A stretch of DNA of 64,000 bases. Source: Callorhinchus milii (lineage: Eukaryota). Under the pieces are notes generated by a model. The model made no database searches. It was not told where the DNA came from and saw only the letters and a list, made by a program, of their open reading frames with translations. Of this stretch, positions 24,425-45,582 are shown piece by piece. The first letter of the stretch is position 1, and every line of letters starts with the position of its first letter. The position numbers and the translations under genes are program-made. The DNA is taken from the NCBI RefSeq assembly GCF_018977255.1, contig NW_024704745.1, forward strand, positions 15,996,001 to 16,060,000, read 5' to 3'.

Positions 24425-24688
<264 letters not shown>

Positions 24689-24772
24689 TAATCTTTCATT
24701 ATGAACACTGTATTTGCACTAAGCGCTTTGAGACCTCCTCCCGACTTGAAAGGTGCGATATAAGTGTAATGT

Positions 24773-25125
24773 GGGAGGCCAGCAGCATAGTGGTTAGCCC
24801 GTTCGCTTCGCAAGCAAGAAGACCCGGGTTCCATTCCTGGGCAGGGCGAAAGCGTACGCAAGTTTCCTTACTCCACACGCCTCCGTTTACCCAGCAATAA
24901 GTAGGAATTTGGTTTTTAGTTGATTGGCGGATCGCTTTCCCGGGGTAATAATCCCTCCAAAAAAACATTAGATTCACTCAATCCACGATTGTTTGTGGGA
25001 CACTGTTGTGCACAATTTGCTGCTGCGTTGCTCTCACAAAATACACAGTCAATCCACTTTACAGTATATTCTTTGAGACATCTCAACAAAGTGATAAAGC
25101 ATGATATCAAATACAAAGATTAGTA
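24773..25125 (+). mobile_element. tRNA-derived SINE with variant head, directly after an L2 tail fragment
   Basis: GCATAGTGGTTAGC...GGTTCCATTCC head; shared body CAAGTTTCCTTACTCCACAC. Confidence 0.8.
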
Positions 25126-25234
25126 TTAATAAATTGTACTGTGTAAATGATATTTATTTTCCAAATGTTATACAATTTTCTTGGCTTGAATTGTTTTGAA
25201 TTGTAACTTGTTATTTCAACAATAATTATTGCAG

Positions 25235-25286
25235 GAGCATGTAAAATCGTCAAAGGAATATGAAGTAAAAAGCTGGTTTCTTGGAG
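25235..25286 (+). CDS. TEX30: TEX30 exon 3 (GC donor)
   Basis: EHVKSSKEYEVKSWFLG-G aligns to human NYLKTSGEYKLAGVFLG-G; donor is G|GCAAGT. Confidence 0.85.
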
Positions 25287-25404
25287 GCAAGTGAACACAT
25301 TCCCCGTTTAAAAGAAGTTGCTGAAAAATATTTTAAAAATAAATGTGTGCGAAAAAGTGCTTTCTTCTAAAAAAAGTTCTGAAATTTTGATTATTAATAC
25401 ATGA

Positions 25405-25641
<237 letters not shown>

Positions 25642-25709
25642 TAGATTGAAATTTTCCTTACAATGAGAAAAGTGGGGAGGGGAAAAAGATCTATGGTAAC
25701 CTAATAATT

Positions 25710-26302
25710 CACCCACAAATATACGGTCAATTCACTTTACAGCATATTCTGTGAAGCGCTTTGAGACGTCTAGAAGACGTGAAAAGCGCTATATCAAATG
25801 CAAGGATTATTATTATGATTTGAGGTATCAGCTCAAACACAAATTGTGTGCCTCTTTAGTTGATAGCATTCTCTTCTCTGGGCTGAAGATTCTGGTTTCA
25901 AGCTCTACATTGGAATTCATTAGTTTACAGTCTACCTTCTGCCACTCTGCTCCTATCCTCTGGAACTCCATCCCACAGGCCCTCCGCCTCGCTCCCTCCC
26001 TTGCCTCTTTCAAGACCCATCTCAAGACCCTCCTCTTCGACCGTGCTTTCAATCTCCCTGCCTCCCTCTCTGCCCTCCACCCTCCCCAATCCCGACCCCT
26101 AGCCCGCGTCCGAAACACTGCACCTTGAGACGTCTTCCCGACGTGAAGGGCACTTTACAAATAATAATTATAATAATCCTTGCATTTGATATAGCGCTTT
26201 TCACGTCTTCTAGACGTCTCAAAGCACTTCACAGATTATGTGAATTGACTATATTTGTGGGCGAAACGCGGCAGCCAATTGCGCACAGCAGCGTCCCACA
26301 AT
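25710..26302. mobile_element. Cluster in TEX30 intron 4: SINE 3' end (+), L2 3' end (+), SINE 3' end (-)
   Basis: Family tails recognisable at ~25800, ~26150 and ~26170. Confidence 0.75.
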
Positions 26303-26447
26303 GTAATTTTGTTAACAATTCAGTTATGATTTTTAAATGTAATATACATTCATATATTTTATTTGGCTTCCTATCATACCTTGGTAGAGTGCTATGTTTA
26401 TACTGATAAAGAAGTTTAATTGTGTCTAAAATTATTTGTACATATAG

Positions 26448-26615
26448 AGCGTGTTGGAAAGAGTACTGAACCAAATGCCAGTGGCCGCTGAAGTACACTG
26501 GGTAGAAGGAGCTAGCCATGGAATGGAAGTTAAACAACGAGCAAGGGAAGACATTATGACTGAGATTAATACTAAGGTCCTTTCATGGATCCAGAAGATC
26601 CTACAAAAAAGATAA
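26448..26615 (+). CDS. TEX30: TEX30 exon 5 (last coding exon)
   Basis: SVLERVLNQMP...VHWVEGASHGM...EINTKVLSWIQKILQKR*; total 224 aa. Confidence 0.9.
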   Translation, partial: SVLERVLNQMPVAAEVHWVEGASHGMEVKQRAREDIMTEINTKVLSWIQKILQKR

Positions 26616-27794
26616 ATTTCAAATAATGTTTGTGCTAATCATGGTTACAGAGTTTAAAACGCTTGCGTTAATGGATGAAAATAAAGGATTACCCAATTGT
26701 TATAACGCCTTCAACAAATTCATTTACTGAGTTTTTAATTTACTCAGTAAAAGACATGTATTGATTTAGCTCAAAGTACTGTTAAATAATCACACTTGCT
26801 GTTTCATTCAGCCTCAGAACCTTTTATTGTTCCTCGGTTTGGCGTCAGGCTTTGCCACTGTTAAGCACTCCAAGATGCTGCCTGCAAGAAGGGTGCTATA
26901 TAAGTGAAAGTTGTTCATTTTGTTGTTTATTGGATCTTTTGGAGGGGCAGTCAGAGAATTAGATACCAATAAAAGAAACTGTTATTGAATATCAAGTGTT
27001 ACTCACTGGTCAATTCAATAATTAGTGATAAACACACAAGCTCATTCATTGTTATCCTTTCATGTACTAATGTAGAACCATATTTTACTTTTTCGCTTTA
27101 CACAGGGTGATCAAAAAGATGTGATATCTACCCTATTATGTAAACAAAAATCATCATTTCATTAAAACTTATTAGAGATTGTAATGGTATCATGATTTTT
27201 TCGTTATTTTCCTGGATTTTACAAATATACCAGATACCAGGTGATGCTTTTGAAATGACGGTGTGTATATACAACCAATATATTGTCATATCAACATATT
27301 CATATCAACAATAAATTATTCTGTACAACATAATACTCATATTTTGGTTTATAGGGTGGGGAAACCCATAGTTTTTTTTTATTTCTTAACCAGTTTGTCA
27401 GATACTGCTGACCGCAATTGGCTTCCGTGTTTTCATCCACAAAATAGACAATCCACTACAATATATTCTGTGAAGAGCTGTGAGACGACTCAACAATGTG
27501 ATAAGGTGCTATATTAAATTAAAGGATTATTATTATTGTGGTTGGTATCTGTCTCATCATTTCAATTCAGGTTATTGTGTTCAGAGCATGACCACCTTGT
27601 GTCCTACAATATAAAGGTGGAAACTCACAGGTCAAAAATGGACAGTGGGGTCCTCCCGACGTGAAAGACGCAATACAAATGTAATCTTGTTGTTGTTGTA
27701 ATCTTACATTACCATTAATAAGCATAGTGATGGGATTCCGCATGTGTCAGGAACCTGGCTGACCAAAAAATGGCTCTCAAGTGTGAGGATATGG

Positions 27795-28199: not shown

Positions 28200-28650
28200 G
28201 GAAATAACACGGTGCGACACAGTGCACAGTTCGGGACATGACCTGTGCACGTGACTGACTGCCAGGCCCGAGCCCGGTCCCCCCTGGCCCCGCCCCCCCA
28301 AACCCCCAGCGGGGTCACGTGCGGCGCGGGGGCGGGGTCCGAGGCACCGGGAGCCACGTGAAGCAGCTGACCCGGGGGAAGGGGGGCGGGGCCTGTGTGT
28401 GTGTGTGTGTGCGCGTGGTGGGGTTCTGCTTCCGGGTGAGGAACATGGCGGGTCCGGCCTGGAACGCGGTGACCGTGCCGTTGCCGGGGAGTCAGTGCAC
28501 TGTGCCCGTGAGCAGCGACTCCCACACAGGTACCGCGGGCCGTGTGGAGCAGCTCCGGCGCTCCCGTCCGTCTCCCTCTCGCTTTCTCTCTCTCATTGCC
28601 CCCCCCCTCCCCCCCCTCCCCCCCCCCGCTCCCCTGTGACCCGGGGATGC
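28200..28650 (+). promoter_or_regulatory. NEPRO CpG-island promoter
   Basis: CACGTG at 28248, 28316 and 28355; GGGGCGGGG boxes near 28328 and 28383; ETS-type CTTCCGG at 28429. Confidence 0.8.
28445..28529 (+). CDS. NEPRO: NEPRO (C3orf17) exon 1
   Basis: MAGPAWNAVTVPLPG... resembles human EPWNRVRIPKAG; good Kozak context AACATGG; donor G|GTACC. Confidence 0.82.
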
Positions 28651-28786
28651 AGCTGCAATCACTGTTTTCTTCCTTAAAGTGGACCGACCTCCCTATGGGT
28701 TGCAAGGAGCTGTTTTATTTTACTGCTGGGAGTTTCTTTGCGCTGCTCCGCAGCACTACCGTAAGGTTTGCACGGTGTGTTTCGAG

Positions 28787-29108
28787 ATAATAGTAATAAT
28801 AATAATAATCCTTGCATTTGATATAGCGCTTTTCACGTCGGGAGGACGTCCCAAAGCGCTTCACAGAACACACTGTAAAGTGAATTGACTGTATATTTGT
28901 GGGCGAACGCGGCAGCCAATTGCGCACAGCAATGTCCCACAAACAGTCGTAGATTGAAAATGACCAATTTATTATTGATTTGGAGGGATTATTATTAGGC
29001 TCTGTGTGGAGTAAGGAAACTTGCCCAAGGTTTCGCCCTCTGCCTGGAATTGAACTCAGGTGTCTCACTTGCAAAGCGAGTGCTCTAACCACTGAGCTAC
29101 AGGACTCC
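28787..29108 (-). mobile_element. Full-length, apparently young tRNA-derived SINE
   Basis: Almost identical to 45583-45914; intact A and B boxes; tRNA head with TGC at the anticodon position. Confidence 0.92.
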
Positions 29109-30570
29109 ACATGCAACTTGTGTGGCTTGATTCAAAACTGGATATTTGCCTTCGTAAATTCTTTATACTTCTTTGTAACTCACATTCAACGGTAAACAAA
29201 TGAAGTGTTGTAACCAGCAAGATTAATTCAGGAATGTGCACTTTACAGTATCACATTTCTACACACATCATACTTTCAAATAAAGAGCATCAACTGTAAC
29301 GATTTTACTGATTTTCTTTGTTAGTGAAAGTAAAGGTGTTTCCCCAAAAAAGAGGAAATTAAAAGGAATGGGTATCTGGCCTCACAGGTGGGGATGGCAT
29401 GGTTTGTAGGCAAACTCGTATGTGAAATCAGGATAAGACTCCAATTATCCAATATGACCTGTGCACAAGGTTACCAGGAGCAATTTATTATATTTGTTAG
29501 AGATGTATATCGCGCCCTTCCTTCTGCGCAGGGTAGCATCTTCGAGCATTGAACAATGGTGTACTTTGAAGACGAGGAGAGAAGAGTAAAGTATTTTTCT
29601 TTGGCTGTGATCTGAAGCTGGGGAATGGGAGCAAGGCAGAGGGATTGAGACAGGAAACCATTTACATGCAGAAAATCATAGAAACAAACTAAGGGAAATG
29701 ACATAGAGTATTAATAAATTCAAAATTGCAGGTGCATTTAATTTTTTTAAAAAAAACAAATGACGCTGGTTATCTGAAAATAAATAAATTACAGGATTAT
29801 GGGAAAAAGACAGGTAAATAGGATTGAAAGGATTGCTCTTTAAAAATCCATCACAGATACAATGGGCCAAAATAACTTTTTTGTGCTGTAAGTTTTGATG
29901 GTTAACAAACCCCAAAAGTGCATTGCTGTTTTGAAACAGTCTCAGCGATATTGGGGTTGAATAAACGGTTTCTGATGAAATAGTAAATGGTGCGTGCGTG
30001 CCAGCAAAAGCTTCATAGGATTCAAAGTGCACATTCTGCATGAAACTGCATATACTATTATATTACATTTCCCCAAGATCTTTTTTTGGAGCTAAGCTTT
30101 GATGTCAGTGTATATCGGATCAGCCTGGCTCAGATGGTAACCAGTCAAAAGGTGGTGATTCTCAAAGCGTCGGGCTTTTTTTGGGAACTTTGAGCTTATG
30201 GTAGGCTGACACTTCAATGCAGAGGTATGATGCATTATCAGAGGTGGAATCCTGGTTTAACCTTGGATGATTTCAGCATAGATCAGTGTTCAATTCCATC
30301 ACTTCCTTGACCTATATCCTCAGTACAATGTCATATGTTGGCAGTCATGGAAACCCTGACAACACATTTCAGAATTGAATGGATCACGTGAACCATCAGT
30401 TGGATGAATTTTACAAGTGGGAACTGTTATTTAAACCATTTTTTGGCTGATTCTTGTGAATGGGGGAGGTTGGAGTTTTTAAAAAATATATACAAACATA
30501 CATAAAGATATCAGTACAGGATAGCATGTTAAATAAATTCAAGTAACAAAATTATCCTGTTTTATTTTAG

Positions 30571-30725
30571 ATGGATGTATACGGGTTCTCATACCGGCCT
30601 GTCAAAACGTTGTAAAGCTATTAAGAAGTAGAGTTCTTACAGCAGAGTTGGATGTTCTGTCTTCTTTGCTGTACGTTTTTCACTACAAGCTGCGCCAACA
30701 CAAGCCGTATCTAGCACTGAAACAG
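30571..30725 (+). CDS. NEPRO: NEPRO exon 2
   Basis: ...LRSRVLTAELDVLSSLLYVFHYKLRQHKPYLALKQ, cf. human HKPHLALKQ. Confidence 0.92.
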
Positions 30726-30964
30726 GTTAGTGTGTTAGCGGAGAGTCTCGTTTCTCTTGAGCAGATCCATGATTTACTGCAATGTAAAACTACATACAAA
30801 GGCAGTTCAGCTAAAATTGTGTTTTAATGTAGAATAAAAAATTTGGGATATTTTCATTCAAATTATTGCAAACAATACACATAAATTCATTCACAAAATA
30901 TAATTTGTGCAATAGTTAAGATACTCGATTTACATTTCATATGGTACAGATTCTCTGTTTTAAC

Positions 30965-31380
30965 AATAAGATTACTCGTGTATAGTGCCTTTCACTTTGG
31001 AAGGATGTCCCGAGGCGCTGGACAGTGTACAGAATTTCAGACCCGAGCTGGGGTGGGGGGGGATGGGGGGTGGCTGATGGCATGGTCGAATTGGAGGGTC
31101 TTGAGGCAGGACTTGAAGGAGGCTAAGGAGCGGGTGAGGCGGAGTGACTGGGATGGAATTCCAGAGGTTGGGGGCAGAGTGGCTGAAGGCTCTCCTGCCA
31201 ATGGTAGGGCGGGTGGGTCGGGGGATATGGAGCAGGCCAGAGCCGGCTGAGCGGTGGGAGCGGGTGGGTTGGTAGGGGGTTAGGAGGTCGCAGAGGTAGG
31301 GTGGGCCGAGGCCATGGAGGCTTTGTATGTGAGGACCAGGATCTTGAACTGGATCCTCTGAAGGATAGGGAGCCAATATG
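30965..31380 (-). mobile_element. L2 LINE 3' fragment in NEPRO intron 2
   Basis: LHGLGPPYLCDLL...GRRAFSHSAPNLWNS (L2 ORF2 C-terminus) plus 3' UTR. Confidence 0.85.
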
Positions 31381-31519
31381 CTATGTGACAATTATTTCTT
31401 ATGTAGCACTGACCAACCATCCCTGCAAGCCAAAGCCCTAACGGGTAGGGTGGTCCTAGCTGGACAAGCAGCGGGAAAACTTCTCAGAAATGAACACTAA
31501 TGTTTATTTATCTTATTAG

Positions 31520-31596
31520 GTTGAACAGTGTGTAAAGCGTCTGAGTAATATGCGACTCGAGGCTTCAATTCGGGATCTGATCGAGTTGTGTCCAAG
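31520..31596 (+). CDS. NEPRO: NEPRO exon 3
   Basis: VEQCVKRLSNMRLEASIRDLIELCP, cf. human [23 protein letters not shown]. Confidence 0.92.
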
Positions 31597-31686
31597 GTAA
31601 TCGATGCAACAGAAATCCCAAAATAAATAGTACTTTTCAAAGCAAGTCCTTTTACATGTCGTGTAACTGTCCTTTTTTAAATTTAG

Positions 31687-31818
31687 GACATCCGAGATCA
31701 ACAAAGCCGGTACAAAACGTGTTCCCAGCCAACCAATGCTGGAGTGGACAGCACTGAGAGTATTGGGTGGCTGCAAGTTGATGTTGCGTCTTATGGATGT
31801 GTGCTCCAAAGCATTTCA
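31687..31818 (+). CDS. NEPRO: NEPRO exon 4 (followed by a U12-type intron)
   Basis: VPSQPMLEWTALRVLGGCKLMLRLMDVCSKAF; no GT donor at the homologous point, where the sequence reads CA|TTATCCTTGC. Confidence 0.88.
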
Positions 31819-32328
31819 TTATCCTTGCATTTATAGTGGTAATAAGTATACGTACGGTTTATGCTTGTCTGTAATGTGTATCATCAAACCCAGGTCTCTC
31901 GTTTGCGAGGCGAGTGCTCTGCCCACTGAGCTACAGGACTCTACATATGCAGTGAAACTGCTAATGGGCCTCGCTATAGAGAATTTATTGATCCCTCGCC
32001 TGTGACCTTCATGCCTTTTGTGCTTTATCTGCCTCTGCACTGGAATCTACAGCCTATTAGCTTAGGAATTTAGCTGGAGCCAGAAAACAGGGTCTCATCA
32101 GGTTCACCGAGTGTTGCACCCTGGAGACTGTTGAACAATTCTTTAAAAAAAACTGTTTTGAGTTGAGTTTAATTTGAAATAACTCGTCACAAATTCAGAT
32201 ATTGAATGAATTTTGAAAAAAAGCATTGCTTATTTTTTGATTGAGTTGGTATAGACATATGTGTTGTATGAAATTGTTGATGTTTGTCACACAAACAAAT
32301 ACTCTGAATACCTTAATTCTGATATTAG

Positions 32329-32406
32329 ACTGGCTATCAAGCATCTTCACTGGCAAGAATTCATAGTTCTAAATTTTATTGTTACAGGATTGCTCAGCAG
32401 ACTTTG
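32329..32406 (+). CDS. NEPRO: NEPRO exon 5
   Basis: LAIKHLHWQEFIVLNFIVTGLLSRLW, cf. human [26 protein letters not shown]. U12 branch-like TACCTTAAT upstream. Confidence 0.9.
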
Positions 32407-32627
32407 GTAAGTGAAGAAATAATATCATTTTTAAATAAATTTAATTTGGAAACTGCTAATTAAATGTCAAATGGTGATTTCAAGTTCATTTTTAACACAG
32501 ATTGTTAGGTACATTTATACATAGAGGAATTTGACACAAGAAACAGGCCCCACCTCTCCTATTCCCCTATCCTATACACCTCTTGTACAAAGCATTTGAT
32601 AAAACCTTTTTTGTTTTCTCGTCCTAG

Positions 32628-33004
32628 GGTGCTATCTAGAGGGATTTTACAAAGCCTAGTTGTTTTATATGAGAAACTATATCCCCTCCTGAAGAAAGTG
32701 GAAAAAATTCAACAGTTGCCTTATGTGAAGGATTTTACTTTACCTGCCAATGTTCAGGAATGGCTTGGTTCTCCCTACACCAAAGTTATGCAAGAGAAAT
32801 TAAAGAACATTTCATCTCAACTGAGTAAGATCCCCACAAGAATACCAGATCTTCTTGACAAATTGTTCTCAGTACAAGAACCTGTGTTACTGGAGGCCCG
32901 TGAGGCTGGTGCACGGGTACGAAAACCGATTCTTGGCAACCCTTTCAAAGTGAAGCAGATGGTTGACATTGGATGCCCTGTACAGAACCGGACAGTTGCT
33001 GTTG
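32628..33004 (+). CDS. NEPRO: NEPRO exon 6
   Basis: VLSRGILQSLVVLYEKL...IQQLPYVKDFTLP...LLDKLF...VDIGCPVQNR; donor G|GTAAGT. Confidence 0.92.
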
Positions 33005-33700
33005 GTAAGTGTTCACACACTGCTAAGTAAACCATATTGTAAGTAATGGGACCACCATGAATTGCCTTTTCCAGTACTAAAAGTTTGACGAGCTATGTGG
33101 TTTTATCTGGTTAGACTCTTGTCAGCCTGCAGCTAATACTCCAGAATTAGATAAGCAGGATGAGTCCCTCTAGGGAGAGTTTGCTTTCCACAGGGAATTT
33201 CCAGGTGTAGGTAGAATGCATGGAATTCTCAGTTTGGTTTGGATACTCTTAAGTATGGTAATGGGGACTCTGTACGTCAGTCACCCGGCTGACCAAAAAA
33301 ACAAGTGCTAGGCACCTAAATTTAGATTTTGTAACGTTTATATAGTTTGCCCTGCTTTAGTTTCAGATTTTAAAACAACAACTTGCATTTATACAAAGGT
33401 CTTCACGTGGGGTAGTGCCCCAAAGCCTTCACAGTGGCGGAGTCTGACAACGAGCCGGGGGAAGAGGGAGGGGGAAGGTGACCATAACCATGATCAAAAA
33501 GGAAGATCTTTAGGCGGGATTTGAAGGTAGGGAGGGAGGGAGCAAGGCGGAGAGATTGAGGGAGAGAGTTCCAGAGTTTCGGAGCATAGTGACTCATGAA
33601 ATGTAGCTTTTGGTTCAAACTGAATCCACACAGAGAGCTCACAATATTATATTTGTATTTTGAGAGTGGAATTGAACTAAACCTTTTATTTCCATTTAAG

Positions 33701-33765
33701 TAACAGGGATACGGTCAGTACCTGAAAAGACCTCTCTACAGACAAGCAGTCACACCTTTTCTCAG
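33701..33765 (+). CDS. NEPRO: NEPRO exon 7 (poorly conserved; an alternative in-frame acceptor at 33707 is possible)
   Basis: Phase 1 in, phase 0 out, which is needed to join exons 6 and 8; AG and CAG|GTTGGT boundaries; open frame. Confidence 0.65.
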
Positions 33766-33809
33766 GTTGGTATGCCACTGTATTTTGGAGATCATTTATT
33801 TACAGTTTA

Positions 33810-34445
33810 CAGTATTACAAAGAATGTACAGCACAGAAACAGGCCACTCATCCCAACCAGTCCATGCCCCTGTTTATACTCCACATGAGTCTTCACCCAT
33901 TGCTTACTCCCTCCCACACCCTTCTATTCCTTTCTCCCTCATGTGCAGGTCTAACTTGCTCTCAAATCTATACCAACTGATTCAACCAATGCTTCAGCCA
34001 GGGAGTTCTACTACCCTCTGAGTGATGTAGTTCCTCGTAAATTCTCTTTTAGATATAAAAATAGTCGCTATCTTATATTTGTGTCCCCTGGTTATGACTC
34101 CCCTACTAGTCGAAACAGTTTATTTATGTTAACCTTTTTGTTAATCCTTTTATAATTTAAAACATTTCTATTAGATCCTCCCCTTAAATGTCTCTCCCCA
34201 AGCAAAAAAAGGCCCAACCTATCCAGTCTATGCTGATACCAGTAACCCTCCAACCCTGGTATCATCCATCGCTATTATATCCTTCCTATTGTGTGGAGGC
34301 CAGAATTGGACAAAGTACTCCAAATGTGGTCTAGCCAAGGTTTTGTATAAATTCAACATCATCTCGCTTTTATATTTTATTCCTCTGGCTGTAAAGTCCA
34401 AGACCCCACTGGCCTTTTTTTATATAGCCTTATCTACCTGAATAG
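33810..34445 (-). mobile_element. CR1-type LINE 3' fragment
   Basis: Typical CR1 antisense text (CAGAATTGGACAAAGTACTCCAAATGTGGTCTAGCCAAGG) and CR1-like 3' end near 33825-33880. Confidence 0.7.
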
Positions 34446-34500
34446 CCACGAATAACATACTATCATTCATGATGAACATCTAGAATTTTTGTTTTGCTAG

Positions 34501-34745
34501 AACACCAAGAAATCTCGGAGTACACGTGCCTCAACAAAATCAAAGAATAAAGAACTAGAACAACCTTCAACAGAAGCTTTCGTGAGGAAGATTAAAGCAA
34601 CACAGACTTTTAAAATGCTTTCTCAAGAGCTAAAGGCAATATTTCTTTGGTTTCGGAACAGGAATTTGAGACGGGAAAGCCGCTATTTAGGAAACCAATA
34701 TCTCCGGTCTAACAGACGTGGAATGCTGGAAGCTCAGGGCTACAG
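34501..34745 (+). CDS. NEPRO: NEPRO exon 8
   Basis: AFVRKIKATQTFKMLSQEL...YLGNQYLRSNR...LEAQGY, cf. human FLGNKLLKSNRLKHLEAQG. Confidence 0.9.
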
Positions 34746-35146
34746 GTACATGTGGTTATATAACTGGCATTCGGGACAGTGGAAAAAAACATATTTATTT
34801 GCTGACCAGTCCATTCAGCATAATTCAGTGGCGTAATTCAGTCACAAATTGGCTCGTGTTCTTGCAGCAGGAATGAAAAATAGGCACAGAATTGTGATTG
34901 GACCTCGAGCTAAATATAATGCCATCTCTGCTAGTGCTTGAAATTGCTGCCCCCCCACCCCAGTATGGAACTAAACCATAGGAACCAGAAGGGAAGTGAT
35001 CTCAGCCAGGGAAGTTCAGGGGTTGCAACAATTTGCTTCATTGTTTTTTGAATAGGGAGGGGGGAAATCAACCATAATTCTATCTGGATGGTTTTCAGTG
35101 ACTTGTGTTTGAACACAGCTATGAAAGTTGCTACATAAATGTAGCG

Positions 35147-35354
35147 AATGCGGCCTCCAATTGCGCACAGCAATGTTCCACAAACAGTCGTGGATTGAAA
35201 ATGACCAATTTATTGTTGTTTTGTTTTTGGAGGGATTATTATTAGGCTCTGTGTGGAGTAAGGAAACTTGCCCAAGGTTTCGCCCTCTGCCTGGAATTGA
35301 ACTCAGGTCTCTCGCTTGCAAAGCGAGTGCTCTAACCACTGAGCTACAGGACTC
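35147..35354 (-). mobile_element. tRNA-derived SINE lacking its 3' tail
   Basis: Head and body match the 28787 copy. Confidence 0.85.
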
Positions 35355-35453
35355 TATTGTATTGTAACCTAATTCACTGTGTTCTATAGTATTCACAGTT
35401 TTGTTTGTTTTAAAAAATGAATGTTTTCAAGCAGCTTTCTACATTTATTTCAG

Positions 35454-35886
35454 TTTTGAAAAGAAGCTACAGGACACAAAAATAGTGGTTTGCAGATACC
35501 TAGTGAAGTGGTCGCAAGGCACACGTCACCAGAACAAAGTGCTTAAAAAACGTAGGAGTAAAGCAACTGTTCTCCAGGAACTCAAAATGAGACACAGTAA
35601 TGCCAGCGGCGATGAAGCATTCGCTCAAGAAGAAATCAATAATGCTCGCAGGAAGAAAAGGAAAAGAAGTCAAAGGGCAGTGCCACCTACTCTACAAACT
35701 GTACAAACTGAAGCAAAGAGAGAGTCCGTTGTTCAACACCTATCTGCTGAATCTGTTGCAAATGTTCAGAATCCCAAGTTCTCGACTTTAATACCAGGTT
35801 CTTCAAAAGCAGTGGATGCTATTGTAGAGACGGTGCCAAAGCTCGACAGTGATATTGATGATATTTTTTCATTGATTGGGGTGTAA
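35454..35886 (+). CDS. NEPRO: NEPRO exon 9 (last coding exon)
   Basis: Basic NLS-like RRKKRKR; C-terminus DIDDIFSLIGV*, cf. human DIDDIFALMGV. Confidence 0.93.
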
Positions 35887-36580: not shown

Positions 36581-37650
36581 TCATATATTGAAATGGATGA
36601 AACATTTCAAAGCTTCTGGTTTGGTAATTTTGTATTGGTTACACTTTTATTGTCACGGTTTTAATTAACTTGCTTATATTATTTGGCTCTTAACATTTTC
36701 AGTTCATGGATCATATTTCCTCTCATTTTTTCCAACGATGACTTAAGATCTGAGCTTTTCTCTAATGCATAAGTAATACATCCCAGAATTATCATTGTCA
36801 TCTTCTTCACAAATCTAAATTAATTAATCGATATTGACTAATTATACTGCTATTTACTTCATTTTTTTTGGCAGCACCAACAAGTGGAAAGTATTGGAAA
36901 GTAAACTTATGCATAATTACCACTTTTGATTTTAAGTTGATTTTATCAGTTACAGCATTGCACATACAATATTTGCAATAATATCATACGAGGATGAGTC
37001 GTAAAAATAGAATAGATAATGCCTCTTGCTATACAGTGATGGCATACTCCAAAGCCTGAAAGTTCACCTTGGTACTATGCAAAACTATTTTAGCTTTGAA
37101 GTAAGCGGAAGAATTGTCACCAGTTGTCCAGCAGTAGTGGTACAGAAGAGTGAGTAGCTTTGTCTTTCTAATACCCTGGTTTTTAACCCCATATCAACTT
37201 GAACCCTGGAAATCAGAACACTAAGTTTGTATTGTGTCTCTCACACACGTACAAAACCACTGATGCTGTGTATATATACCCTGCCTCGTATTGCCAAAGC
37301 AGTAACTGAAGCAATGTAATTTAAGACAGAGATTGTCACATCAAATAAAAATGATACACAGGGGAACAAGGATTTCAATCATTACATTTCTGAAAGCATT
37401 ACTAATTATCTTTAAAATACTCAAAACAAATTGCATGTGTAACAATAGAAAGGATGGTATTATATAAAGGACACAGTATATACATCATGTAAAGATAAAG
37501 GGTTTTGTTCAAAGTCTTTAGAAATAATCTCTTAACACAGTGCAAATTCAAGTGACCTAAGCAACAAGAATATTACAAATAATGCTTTTACAATCCAAGC
37601 ATTATTAGATATTTAACAAACTTGCGCACATTTAAGCTTAAGTGGAATCT

Positions 37651-37904
37651 TTATAGGTTGGTATTTGCATCCAAGGCATCAAATGGCAATTTTCCATCTA
37701 GATAGAGCCCCGTGTTAGTAATTTTAACTGGTAGTTTTTGGTCTATACTGAGCTCATTTTTTGTGACATCACTCTTTACCTTTTCATCTGCATCGAAACC
37801 TCCATTTGTTGAAATATAGGGTGAGACGGGTTTTTCTTCATTGTTTTCTTGGGCTGTAGAATCTTTTTCGGTTTTCTTCCAGAGTCTCTTGTAAACCTGA
37901 TACG
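37651..37904 (-). CDS. SLC10A2: SLC10A2 exon 6 (last coding exon)
   Basis: YQVYKRLWKK...NGGFDADEK (human NGGFQPDEK) plus a C-terminal extension to ...DANTNL*. Confidence 0.85.
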
Positions 37905-38930
37905 CTGAATGAGTCAAAAAATTAGACTTTCATTATGCTGAAAAATACACTACAGCTAATATAGCTCTATAGCATCAGCTTCTCTGCAAGAAGATGCAGT
38001 ACCTAGTTTGGCGTGCTGCTCTACCTGGTACAGTTGAAACAAATTTTATCTACTCTTAGCAATTTGGATAAGAGATGTGCTTTGCACTGGCAGAATTTTC
38101 CAAATCTAGCTCTGTAATAATCATGCAGCAGTTAATGTGCTCCATTTACTACATGCATTCTGTATCTGTCGCCACAGGGTGACTCAGTGCACTTCTTGCT
38201 TTTTGTTACACACTTTAAATCTATTCAATAATAATAATTCAATGTGGTTGCCGCATACACTAAAAGGACAGTATCAATCCAGTTTTTTNATTATTAATAA
38301 ATTACTGATAGATCCTTTGAGTCTTTCCTAATTATAAATTAAAGTTATCATTCATGCATTAATGATAATAATCCTTTCATCTGATATAGCACCTTTAACC
38401 TCGGGATAGCACCTTTCACTTCGTGAGGACGTCTCAAAGTGCTTCACAGGATTCACTGTAAAGTGTATGACTATTTTGAGGGGGAACGTATACTTCATGC
38501 AAAAGATATTGCTTGGACAATGTGGAACATCACTTCATGAAGGATGATAGAGCTGAAAAATCCTAAATTATAACTGTTTTGCTGCCAGGAAATGGTTCTT
38601 TAATACCTCCTGGATCCAGATGATGAACATCAAGAGGGCACACCATTCCCAGCCAAATATCACAGGGTCCTAAACCTATCCCAGCACGCAAAACTTTAAC
38701 CATTTTTTGTCCAGGAACCATAATCTTATAATTGAAGTGTAAGGAAACTTGCCTAAGATTTCACCCCCTCCCGGGAATTGAACCTGGGTCCTCTTGCTTG
38801 CGAGGTGAGCGTGCTAACCATTATGCCGCAGGACTCCACAATCTAAACGATTTGAACAACTAAGTCATCCCATCTTTTTAGGATTTTCATATATCTAAAG
38901 ATGCATTTGAAGAAAAAAAAGTAAACTTAC

Positions 38931-39088
38931 TTCCAATCAGTATTGCAGCAAACGCTATTTGAAAGACACTGTAAATAAGTGGAAAGGTGAACATGAGAAC
39001 AAGCTGCTCAGGTGAGAAAGAGAGCTGGACAATGGTCGTGCAGAGCTGAGTGTTCTGTGCACCGGTCTCCAAAGCTACAGTACGGCAT
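38931..39088 (-). CDS. SLC10A2: SLC10A2 exon 5
   Basis: [24 protein letters not shown]...[11 protein letters not shown]; 158 nt; AG/GT boundaries. Confidence 0.95.
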
Positions 39089-39135
39089 CTGTGAGAATAC
39101 GAGAATAGTGTTTATATTACTGTTGAACTTGATTT

Positions 39136-39482
39136 ATAATAATAATCTTGCATTTCATACAATGCCTTATCATGTCTTTGAGACGTCTCAAAGCGCTTCG
39201 CAGAATATACTGTATGGTGAATTAACTGTATACCGTATTTTGTGGGCGAAACGTGGCAGTCAATTGCGCACAGCAGTGTCCCACAAACCACCGTGAATTA
39301 TTTACTTATTTTGAAGGGATTATTATCCCTGGAAAACCTATCCGCTAATTGACTAACAACCAGGTTCCTACTTACTGCTCGGTGTTTGGGGTAAGGAAAC
39401 TTGCCCAACGTTTTGCCCCGCCTGGGAATCAAGCCCAAGTCTTCTAGCATGTGAGGCGAGTGCTCTAACCACTAAGTTACAG
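39136..39482 (-). mobile_element. tRNA-derived SINE (longer subfamily)
   Basis: Head, body and tail as in the 11993 copy. Confidence 0.82.
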
Positions 39483-40359
39483 AACAATTTCATTGTATCA
39501 TGGTAAATAACATTGTTTCCAAGGTCTAATAAAACATTTGATCAAATGACTCACACCAGTTCGGGATCACAAACATGTAGCAATATATTATTGAAAGTCA
39601 AATGTTACAGTTCAAAATACAACCAGTTTTAGGAATTGCAAGAACATAGCAAGGTTTACAATTTAAGATTGTATCAGAGCATTTTTATAGCAACAACGTA
39701 AGGGTTAGAGTTTGATGTTGTTATCTTTTTAGTAGATGAGATATCCTCAGTGGTATTTCACTAGCAAGTAAGTGTTTTTGTTTTTGTAACATCAAATGTT
39801 CTCACCCCTTTTAAGTGGAATTATTTCAATGACAAGGGAGCATTTTCGATAACATTCTTTATACCTTTGCTAGCAATTACTTTAGATTTGAAATAGATAT
39901 GATAATGTGTAGCAACACTCGGTAAATCATTCAAAACAATTCACAGCTTAGTGTTTTTTCAGTAGTTGCGATATTACCGTTACAATAATAATAATCCTTG
40001 CATTTGCTATAGTACCTAATCAAGTCGTTGAGACCCTAAAATAATCAAAGATGTTGCATATTTACTAAAATATCAGAGAGGATCATATGCCCACAGTTCA
40101 AAATACAACCAGTTAGTGTACTTTTAGGAATTGCAAGAACATAGCAAGGTTTACAATTTAAGATTGTATCAGAGAATTTTTATAGCAACAACTTAAGGGT
40201 TAGAGTTTTTTGTTGTTATCTTTTTAGTAGATGAGATATCCTCAGTGGTATTTCACTAGCAAGTAAGTGCATTATGTTTTTGTCTGGAAAATTGAAAGCA
40301 TTACAATTAATAATATATTTTCACTGTATTTGAGTACAAAGGCATTAAAAAGGCTGTAC

Positions 40360-40535
40360 CTAAACCAAGGCTGGCCAGCAATACGAGCTAGAATAAATCC
40401 CATTGCGTAACCAATGGCTGGATAGATTGTTCCTATAATCCAGAGGGAAGGGTCTGTCGCCCAGGATCCTCTATAGAGCAAGGCTCCAGCCACAGCTATA
40501 CCAATGATGAGAAATATTCCTGCGATAGACCCAAT
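40360..40535 (-). CDS. SLC10A2: SLC10A2 exon 4
   Basis: [11 protein letters not shown]...LWIIGTIYP...[14 protein letters not shown]; 176 nt. Confidence 0.95.
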
Positions 40536-41449
40536 CTGTAAGAAAAATATTGCCAGAAATGTAAAGCAGTGGAACAGATTAATGCACTACAAAGTGAATC
40601 ATACCTGTATCAAAGGCATAGGAATATATGAATGTATAGGAACACTAAGGGCTATGGAGGTCCTTCTGGCTAAATTCAAATTAAAAAAACTTGAATTTAG
40701 TCAGATTTTTGTCATTGAAATTTGCTATTCACAAACATTGTGATCCACAGTTTTGCATTCATTTGTTGAGGATTTAAATCTATTTGGATTTTTATGACAG
40801 AAACTTCCCAGTAGCTCATTACTACTTGGTCATGTGTAATTTTGTTTGCCAATTTCCTTTTCTTTTTGCCCCACCCCCTCTCCTCAAATCAGTGACTCTT
40901 ATTGGAGTCATTTAATAATTTACAAAATTTGCAATAAACAATGACAATTTGCATTTATGTAGTGCTCCTCACGCAGGGTAGCGTCCCAGAGGGTTTTACC
41001 AATCTGGGAGGGAATGCAATAATATGACGCAACCTGATAATACATTGCACCAATGCATTGTGCCAAGCGGGTGGTTCAGATTCAGGTTTTCTTCCCCATC
41101 TTTGTTTTGCCATTATAGAAGAGCCAAATAGAACTTCCTCAATGGGAAGGAAGTTAATCAAATATCAAGGTCTATTTAGAAATTGCCGTGAAATAGACCC
41201 GACAGCCTGTACCCATGAATAAGTCTGTGCTACACTCCTGTACGTCTTTTTACCAGGTTACAGAATAGCTTTGTGAGAGGCCTGAGTCCTGCCAGCCTGC
41301 ACTCCCATTTGGGAGGTGGCTACATGACAAAAGTCTAAAGAGGTGAAGAAAAAAAAACGTGACAGGAAAATAGAGCAATGAAATTATGATGTTGCAAAGG
41401 AAAACTTGTAGAAATGTTTTTCTCGTTAAAAACTGCGTATTTAAGTTAC

Positions 41450-41538
41450 CTTCAGTATCAACTTTGCCTGTTTTGGCCATCTGTAGTTCACATAAACTCC
41501 GAAAGCAACAGGAATAACTAGAGTTGCTAGGGTTATAC
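41450..41538 (-). CDS. SLC10A2: SLC10A2 exon 3
   Basis: ITLATLVIPVAFGVYVNYRWPKQAKLILK; 89 nt; read directly. Confidence 0.93.
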
Positions 41539-41639
41539 CTGCAAAACACAAGTTACAGGTTTCTTTAGCTTCCATACACAAATACACAAAAAATAGAGGA
41601 CTGTTCACTTATTGTAATTTTTTTTTACAGATAAATTAC

Positions 41640-41758
41640 CTATGCTGTCATAAGGGATCTCGATGGAATTTGCACCAACCCATGTTTTAGTGTAAATGAA
41701 GAGGCAAAGAGGCATCATTCCCATTCCCAGAATTGTGGAACATGTTGTCATACTTATA
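41640..41758 (-). CDS. SLC10A2: SLC10A2 exon 2
   Basis: [27 protein letters not shown]...IPYDSIG; 119 nt. Confidence 0.95.
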
Positions 41759-44625
41759 CTGAAAAAGAAAATACAGATTTGTTTCAGACAAACAGCGAAT
41801 AATACTCAGCACGCAAAACAAATATTTTCACATCTCAAACATTTGACATGGGTATGAATATAGGAAACACTTTCAGATTATTTCACTGTGATAAGAATCA
41901 TATGAATAAATTGTTAAATTTTTCTATATTGATTCAATGAATTGTATTGATGTTGAAGTTAAGGTTCTAATCCTTAAATTTCTTATATTTAGTGCACTTT
42001 AATAATGTACATGGAGAATGTTGAAATGTTGATAAATGTATCAATACATGGAGCATTACCATCATAATGTTGATTTAATAATAACCTATTTCATGCTTCA
42101 ATTGTATCAAAACCACATCAGTGCTTAATAATATTGATGTTCAGTGAACTTGCACTGTTTGCTTAAAATAACTGAATAATAATCATTATCCTTGACTTGA
42201 TATGACACCTAATCACATTGTTGAGATGTCTCAAAGAGCTTCACAGAATACACTGTAAAATGGTTTGACTGTATTTTATAAGCAAAACTTGCAATACAAG
42301 TTTAAATTATAAATAAAGAACATTGCATTAAAATATAAAATTAATTTATACTTTTAAAGTTGTATTACTTTTATTTCTAAGGACCTAGGACACAATTGTT
42401 AAATTTATCGAATAGAGCAGAATAACACTTAACCCACACCAAAGAATTCATTACATGGTGCCCACTGAATCTTTCATTGAACTGGTTGTAACGTTTACCT
42501 CTATGCCTTGTTTGCAGTCTATTAAATAAGGTTGAAGAGCTTCAGATTGTAACCTTACATGTAACACTTGCTAATCTAGTTCTATGCAGTCTAGGCACTC
42601 ACACCTTTTACTGTCTTTAGGATGTTAGTTGTTGAGTAAAGTTATGATCCTGTAATGTTCAAATTCAGTTCAGAATCATAACTATTGGTTTTATGGTTTA
42701 ATGCTGGAAATTTAAATGCAACTGTGACTTCTTTTTAGAAATGAAACATGCAAGCTATAAATCTGAAACACAAATATTAAATTTCGGACTATATTTCCTC
42801 TTATGTTTCGTAGGTTTTGTGAATAGTTTGGTTTATTGAATAATTTTCGCTGTCAAATTGAGTGTTCAATTAACAGAATCTTACTGTAGTCTGTTTAGTT
42901 CAGTTGGTGGCACACTTGTCTCTGGGGCAGAAGTTTGCAACTTCAAGCTCCATGTTGGGCTCATAACCAAGACTGATACCTCAATGCAAGACTGGGGGGA
43001 TGTACTGTTGGAGGTGCTGGTTTTTAGATGAGACATTAAAGGATCTGTTTGCCTGTTCAGTTAGGTGTTTAAAAATCCCATAACACCTTTTAACAATAGA
43101 AGGGATTTTCTCCTGGTGTTCGGGCCAAGAATCCCTCAGATGAATTGATCATTTGCTTCATGGCTGTTTGTGGGAGCTGATTGTGCCCAAAAGACATTCA
43201 CATTTGTCTAAGAAACAGTTGACAGTAATGGCCGTAAAACATTTTGATGTGATAAGGCATTAAAAAATATAATTTATTTCTTCCTTCACATCTGACTGGG
43301 TGTTGGGTGAAGGCAGGATCAACTGGCTTTAATTAGGGTTAGGGCAGGGTAAAATATCTTGCTGGCACTCGGTATTTTGGCTCACATGCAAAGAATGGGT
43401 GAGGTACTGGAGAGATGCCAATGCCTTCGGAATGATGCCCTTGATTGACTCAATGTCTTCTGACACCCAAACATCCACCTTGCCTTGGCCGAGTGATTAC
43501 TTTGTCTTAAAATATAAGATTACAAGATATGTAGAAGATTCTTCAATTCAATCTTAATCGTGATGTCAGCTTGGTTTAGGAAATGTAAAGAAAATGGCTC
43601 CCAAATGAAGACCGAATTTGAGAATTTTCTACAATTCTGGCAATCTTAAATTTTAATACATGATTGATCTTATAGGCTAATACTAGGGTTTCAGGAGGAG
43701 AAAATAGGAGAAAACAAAAGTGGAGAGAAAAAGAAATTAAAAAGAAATTCTCAAATATTTCACGTAATGAAGACAGATAAGTAATAATTTCATATAATAA
43801 TCATAGCTTATCTCCTCTTCACTTAATTATCAAATTCCCAGGATGCTAAATTATTAGTATAGTATTTTAGATTTTACCTTTTCATTGGGAATAATTTCAT
43901 TAGGAATCTCCACCCGACAGAAAGTAAATTTTAATGAATGTACACAGATAATGGAACTGTCCATCATAGGTGCACATAATTAAAGTGTAGTGCTATTTTT
44001 GTTCACTCTCCGTGCACTACACTCCTAACTTAAGTGAATGCAATAGACTTTACCCTTTTGGAACAACAGCAATTAAGCTCCAACAAATGTTAAAGCATAG
44101 GTGTTCAAAATATTGTACTATGCTTTTGTACCATAACAAACTGTTTCAGTTGATAACAGTAAGTTAATACAGAAATACCCAATTAGTGAATTCACTGATC
44201 CTTGTAACACTGAACCACACAAACCAAGAAAGGATAGTTGATCTCCAGTCTTTGCTGCTATAACTATTGTCAGTCAGGGTGGCAATAGATCTGCCAAATA
44301 CACCTTGGTCAGACAAGGAAAAAAATTAACCAGGGATATACTGCTGCTACTTATTCAGTAAATACCCGGTGGCTGTGCATGTGTGTGGATGCCACTAGTC
44401 AGAAAGTCCAGCTGGTTTTAGACAAAGACTATTTTCCTAGCATTTCAGACCATGCAAATGTTGGCAAATTCTTAAATTCAGTCTTAATTTGGGAGACAGT
44501 TTAGTTATTTGATATAATGTCACATCAACATGGGGAATGTTGATTAATCTGCTTAATTTAAACTCCAAATTCAATGTTACAAAAACATCCAATGCTGTAA
44601 CTCTTGATAACACTTGTTTCCGTAC

Positions 44626-45029
44626 CTGAGATCCATGTCCCCATCCATCCAATATGACATAATGTTTGATCCTGTTCCTCCAGGGCAGCATCCCATTATT
44701 AGCACTGCAACTGCTTGAACTGGATGAATGTCAAAAGCCAAGGACAGCAGAAAGGCTGTGAGGGGCATTATACCAAACTGACAAAGAAAGCCCACACATA
44801 TACCCCACGGTTTCTTGAGGTGGGCCAATAGTCTATTGACTTCGACATTGCAACCCATGGAAAACATAATTAAAGCCAACATGATTGTCAACACAGTACT
44901 TAAAATAATATTCAAAAGCTGGTTGAAATTGTCTAGAGGTATCAGACATGATGTGTCATTGCAGTTGGTGGAATGTTCAGGACAGTACAAATAAGGCATT
45001 GCCAGATTTTTCATCATCATGGCATCCAT
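44626..45029 (-). CDS. SLC10A2: SLC10A2 (ASBT, apical sodium-dependent bile salt transporter) exon 1; exact start Met uncertain (several clustered ATGs)
   Basis: [30 protein letters not shown]...[16 protein letters not shown]...GCCPGG...DGDMDLS; donor AG|GTACG. Confidence 0.93.
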
Positions 45030-45582
45030 TGTCAGAAGTTTTTCAGTCTTCTCTGCATTCAAATTGTAAGTATCTCCTGCAAGAAACAAACGTTCAGGAG
45101 AGAAACAGAATGATGTGAAGAAGTGAAGGGCTGTTCACAACCTCAACATAAAGGGCTAAAGGTGCTTGCCTTAATAAGACTGTGGGACAACAATAAAAAG
45201 GATGATAAACGCCTACCTAATAAAAATGTACAGGCATTGACATTAACATTATATGAGGCAGCTAGATAATATCTTTAACCCTTTTGAATACTGATTAGCT
45301 TCAAAACTACTCGTTTTCTGTCAAACAACCCCAAGAATCATTTTAACCATGTTTCAAATCATGAATATTACATGACTTAATATGGATTTTATATCATAAC
45401 ATGGATGAATGAGAAAACATAATCTTGTGATATGTTCTGATTTAATGCAGATATAGTACTGCTTTGAAGAGTTAAAGTGGGGTTAAATACTCTGTGATAA
45501 ATATTTCCAAAATAATTAGATTTCTTTTTAAAATAAATGATTTAGAAATAGTTTTGTTGTGTTTAAAGGATTAAAAATTCTT

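Follow-up and report, generated by a model that had tools for sequence, protein, structure and literature searches.

Human NEPRO, also named C3orf17, is a known minor-intron gene (PMC3564746, PMC6865273, PMC6800510). Its U12 intron, 460 nt long (C3orf17, hg19 chr3:112731659-112732118), is listed with GT_AG ends at chr3:113012812-113013271 in the supplement of PMC8280824. In that listing, the donor is printed as CT|GTATCCTTG, the branch sequence as TACCTTAAA and the acceptor as CAG|TTTGAC, and the flanks encode K-T-F-L-L-T with a phase 2 split. Retention of the intron was reported to rise from a PSI of 0.05 to 0.16 in U4atac-mutant fibroblasts (PMC6800510) and from 0.15 to 0.37 in ZRSR2-mutant samples (PMC8280824). 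In addition, PMC3564746 includes the human gene among the twintrons, with U2 variants. Minor introns with TT-AG ends have been catalogued as well. Among the conserved animal minor introns counted by Larue and Roy (2023, PMC10639083), 54,669 (74.2%) were GT-AG and 10 (0.014%) were TT-AG, and 12 TT-AG minor introns were given for plants in the same source. Both a NEPRO minor intron and a TT-AG class of minor introns are already known.

The locus described here lies in the window, i.e. the whole stretch of 64,000 nucleotides of the elephant shark (Callorhinchus milii) genome that was analyzed. A nine-exon NEPRO model on the forward strand (28445..35886) was translated into 548 aa with 0 differences from the RefSeq record XP_042190445.1 of the same species, which bears out the gene assignment made in the earlier note; two further C. 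milii records were 1–2 residues apart from this translation. Coding exon 1 (28445..28529, ATG at 28445), exon 2 (30571..30725), exon 7 (33701..33765), exon 8 (34501..34745) and exon 9 with the stop codon (35454..35886) were placed by the protein model. The 3' end of exon 2 also coincides with a loose contig end before exon 3, and the start of exon 7 with another, in each of the public runs X5, X6 and X7. Exons 3 (31520..31596), 4 (31687..31818), 5 (32329..32406) and 6 (32628..33004) were defined by RNA contig joints and by the protein model, and all nine exons are on the forward strand. Seven of the eight introns have GT-AG ends in the window, and intron 4 (31819..32328) reads TT-AG. Exon 4 together with the donor of intron 4 gave 1 match in the genome assembly, and a second copy or haplotig of the exon was not found there. 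Since the exon is single-copy in the assembly, no paralogue confusion was found.

The neighboring genes were also noted. Upstream of NEPRO, exons resembling an alpha/beta-hydrolase are located at 24450-27110 on the forward strand, and we take this neighbor to be TEX30-like. Two fish proteins combine a NEPRO domain with an extra PF20408 and may be merged models of the NEPRO and hydrolase-like neighbors. Downstream, a gene on the opposite strand (~37650-45130) has bile-acid-transporter-like exons and is presumably SLC10A2-like.

On comparing intron 4 of the window with the human NEPRO U12 intron, both were found to interrupt the same codon (Q in the elephant shark) in the same phase 2. Exon 4 ends ...GCA TTT CA at 31818, and the intron starts with TTATCCTTGC at 31819, the U12 5' splice site occupying 31819..31827. 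The donor is identical between the two species at +2..+9, and the branch sequence, TACCTTAAT at 32309..32317, has 8 of 9 letters in common with the human one. From the end of this sequence, 11 nt lead to the last intron base, and the AG acceptor (32327..32328) follows the second branch A by 12 nt in the window and by 13 nt in human, as counted from the printed sequence. The introns differ in length (510 nt in the elephant shark, 460 nt in human), in base -1 (A in the elephant shark, T in human) and in base +1, which is T in the window and G both in human and in the public run X1. The branch A would be 32315 or 32316, and the resulting branch-to-acceptor distance of 12-13 nt falls in the best range of 11-13 nt given for U12 introns in PMC3584512, where either branch A is described as usable. 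The suggestion in the earlier note that human C3orf17/NEPRO stands on minor-intron lists was correct, as the intron is a catalogued U12 intron (PMC8280824, PMC6800510, PMC6865273). The U12 class proposed for intron 4 is likewise upheld by the donor, by the branch sequence and by the human intron, which splits this codon in the same phase. The proposed donor from 31819, branch sequence and AG acceptor were all located at the positions claimed for them.

Minor introns are recognizable by consensus motifs at the donor (+2..+9) and the branch (CCTTRAY), and these motifs were used in scoring. Intron 4 matched the donor consensus at 7 of 8 positions, and the other seven NEPRO introns matched it at 2–4 of 8. 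In the window, a 7/8 donor match was found at 117 of ~128,000 positions (9e-4), and a CCTTRAY box lying 8-21 nt before an AG was found for 13 of 7756 AGs (0.17%), so that the joint chance of donor and branch box is ~1.5e-6 if the two are independent; these figures apply with both intron ends fixed by the RNA contigs. Because a motif pair of such rarity sits on an RNA-defined junction, its occurrence there is not chance. In the case of the pyrimidine tract, the pyrimidine share at -17..-4 was 64% in intron 4, the lowest of the eight introns, and 71-86% in the other seven. The claim that a real polypyrimidine tract is lacking holds only in this relative sense, since intron 4 is not pyrimidine-poor.

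U11 and U12 genes are present in the genome above the Rfam cut-offs. According to the computed duplexes, the 5' end of U11 snRNA can pair with the donor at +3..+8 (-5.7 kcal/mol), and U12 snRNA can form 8 bp with the branch sequence, with A32315 bulged (-6.4 kcal/mol). The steps proposed for intron 4 are modeled on the known pathway, with dependence on the minor spliceosome known for the human intron only. Following that pathway, U11 would base-pair with the donor beginning at about +4, +1..+3 would be read by the U11-48K protein, U12 would pair with the branch sequence with the branch A bulged, and the AG located 12-13 nt downstream of the branch A would be picked by distance, without a pyrimidine tract. 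As described in PMC3584512, intron bases +1..+3 are left unpaired by U11 and are read by U11-48K, and this contact of 48K is called sequence-specific in PMC7367187.

For U6atac, two matches were obtained in the genome assembly, and both looked damaged. The first (L004:1501-1625, G000:C2) has a changed conserved 5' part and adjoins a tRNA-like repeat, and the second (L005:1501-1695, G000:C14) has the consensus 5' end and a long insertion. An exact search of the assembly for the first 28 bases of the U6atac consensus gave 0 matches. A working U6atac gene may be absent from the assembly or may lie outside the scored candidates.

Four of the 24 listed public runs were compared with the window: X1 (study P1), X5 and X6 (study P2), and X7 (study P3). 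No run was recorded as RNA, and X5, X6 and X7 were treated as RNA because each showed three spliced joints. In each of these three, a single contig linked exons 3-4-5-6, with depths of 90, 63 and 26, respectively. All three RNA-like runs, from two studies, joined 31818 to 32329 with a skip of 510 nt and no ambiguous letters, and the junction CA^ACTG favored in the earlier note was thereby found. The corresponding peptide, KAFQLAIKHL, is present in all four C. milii NEPRO protein records. Moreover, the ten residues across the junction stretch were kept in 113 of 120 homologues; among the remaining seven, three were without the region, three were partly gapped and one had nine residues.

These data also bear on splicing as AT(31818)-AC(32330), alone or in competition with the 510-nt register, which would produce KAFLAIKHL. 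On paper this register keeps the reading frame, as had been pointed out, and its AT-AC ends are canonical; however, its 513-nt joint was seen in none of the three RNA-like runs, in contigs that can hide a rare product. It is further opposed by the four C. milii protein records, each of which reads KAFQLAIKHL, and by the homologues, only one of which has nine residues where 113 have ten, and the donor motif would sit one base out. Accordingly, this explanation is considered scarcely credible. The idea of competing registers found no counterpart either, as the contigs of X5-X7, which drop rare forms, contained neither a 513-nt nor a 507-nt joint. The registers TT-AT (507 nt) and TT-CT (513 nt) are in frame, like AT-AC (513 nt), and gave no joint in these runs. 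In-frame cryptic GT sites near the donor (e.g. 31846 and 31852) were unused by any contig joint. Unlike the human C3orf17 gene with its U2/U12 twintron, the three elephant-shark RNA-like runs showed no alternative joint, again in contigs that drop rare forms.

The middle of intron 4 (31896-32269) was covered in all three RNA-like runs by separate contigs of low depth (4.6, 8.4 and 9.2). These contigs are compatible with minor-intron RNA, either unspliced or excised, but could also be library DNA. In contrast, RNA-contig cover was lacking for introns 3 and 5 and for the beginning of intron 6. This pattern was not counted as retention, since the absence of the other introns from contigs is no evidence. 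Also within intron 4, 31883-31945 is a short piece of a very abundant repeat, with a contig depth in the thousands, and similar copies are located near 29020-29110 and 35260-35355.

The RNA-like runs define where the intron starts and ends, and the first intron base has to be taken from other data. The label TT..AG on the RNA joints consists of the letters of the window, the RNA contigs being without cover on the intron side at 31819, and gene-model proteins cannot show the first intron base. The base was read in run X1, in which the one contig covering it (1/1) gives G at 31819 (forward strand) where the window has T. This contig is 460 nt long with a depth of 7, and base 31819 lies 94 nt from its end. 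X1 is unspliced and has a flat depth of ~7 across exons and introns, and it was therefore taken as genomic by behavior, its kind not being recorded. Over 1601 nt, a substitution was listed for X1 at 31819 only, and the next contig showed 0 differences from the window over the 1168 nt compared. Thus, T at +1 was not seen in independent genomic data, the single genomic-type run compared (1/1) giving G. The word shares of X2-X4 (0.86-0.89) are uninformative on this base.

The same X1 contig is also one A longer than the window in a short A stretch after 31678 that closes the pyrimidine tract of intron 3, and this difference is either another questionable base or a linked variant.

A naturally occurring TT-AG intron, as proposed in the earlier note, finds no support in the G of X1, the only genomic-type run compared, or in the GT-AG ends of the human intron. 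The check suggested there, namely whether genomic reads have G or A at 31819, yielded G, in one contig of X1 that possibly comes from another animal. If the window and X1 have the same source, the T is either erroneous or allelic to the G; if X1 comes from another animal, T is not fixed. Since X1 and human agree on G at the first base of an intron whose position they share, GT-AG is likely the ancestral state of the NEPRO U12 intron, as judged from the sequences of two species. A search for orthologous introns in host DNA from metagenomes returned 56 pattern matches, of which 0 were confirmed.

We estimate a probability of about 85% that intron 4 of the elephant shark is an ordinary GT-AG U12 intron at the human position and that the T is either an error of the assembly or an allele private to the sequenced animal; the odds on the T are a matter of judgement and were not computed. 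If the T is an assembly error or a rare damaging allele, the species has an ordinary GT-AG intron in both cases. An assembly error is the most likely explanation. A real, rare or private and probably damaging allele carried into the haploid consensus is possible, although rather unlikely. Reference-genome variants can give rise to false non-canonical sites (PMC4176328). X5 and X6 had 4 listed differences from the window, three in intron 4 and one exonic and synonymous. Animals of the species thus differ from the window elsewhere in the stretch, and a real T allele is therefore possible. Retention of intron 4 would introduce a stop at 32003, so that 211 of the 548 codons would be translated. 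Because NEPRO is listed as essential and its knockout in mouse impairs blastocysts (PMC6865273), we consider it unlikely that a weak donor would have become fixed.

Should the T be a real private allele, it would amount to a single-base change in the donor of a minor intron, comparable to the U12 splice-site disease variants of STK11/LKB1 (+1 A>G), SEDL and AP4M1 (PMC8329584). In those cases cryptic sites are activated. The AP4M1 disease change is reportedly +1 G>T.

The T could also be one allele of a G/T polymorphism at +1, the T version being removed as a TT-AG intron and tolerated well enough. The pairing of U11 and U12 would be untouched by a change at +1 (PMC3584512; duplex at +3..+8), and the TT-AG minor introns on the list, ten in animals and 12 in plants (PMC10639083), are in line with this, as is a constitutive TT-AG junction in human ETV1, whose spliceosome class is unstated in the account given (PMC4176328). 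Natural variation was seen inside intron 4 (X5 and X6), and the G comes from one contig only; as contigs drop variants, X1 could carry both letters. However, U11-48K reads +1..+3 sequence-specifically (PMC3584512, PMC7367187), non-canonical termini are often spliced with reduced efficiency (PMC3584512), and the T is known from one sequence, the assembly. Considering both sides, we regard such a polymorphism as improbable. U at +1 is also said to have been found strongly harmful by Dietrich et al. in 2005. The letters of the window do fit the TT-AG class, being one change from GT-AG and accompanied by a U12 donor and branch; however, that class was counted from genome annotations (PMC10639083), and the T of the window is contradicted by the only genomic-type run compared.

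Even less probable, in our view very much so, is a T that is fixed in the species, with a TT-AG intron and with the G of X1 as a contig error or a letter from another population or species. The window does have T, the segment skipped by each of the three RNA-like runs is exactly TT..AG in the letters of the window, and the depth of X1 is only 7. However, the TT..AG label was taken from the letters of the window and not from the RNA samples, X1 and the RNA runs are filed under the same organism label, and it is unlikely that a random error would hit 31819 and yield the human letter.

The reading as an ordinary GT-AG U12 intron is preferred, and the surprising TT start probably does not characterize the species. 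No paper on the elephant-shark NEPRO intron was found in the literature searched, and further supplementary files may list vertebrate orthologues; PMC11347168 and bioRxiv 10.1101/2023.12.22.573053 contributed nothing further. The comparison extends the NEPRO minor intron known from human to a chimaera and points to a single questionable base in a reference genome. Moreover, it calls for caution, as non-canonical splice sites seen in a single genome need raw-read checks, and such cases may include some of the ten animal TT-AG introns. If the T is real and the intron carrying it is spliced, the locus would provide a natural same-locus test of the tolerance of the minor spliceosome for U at +1 and of recognition by U11-48K.
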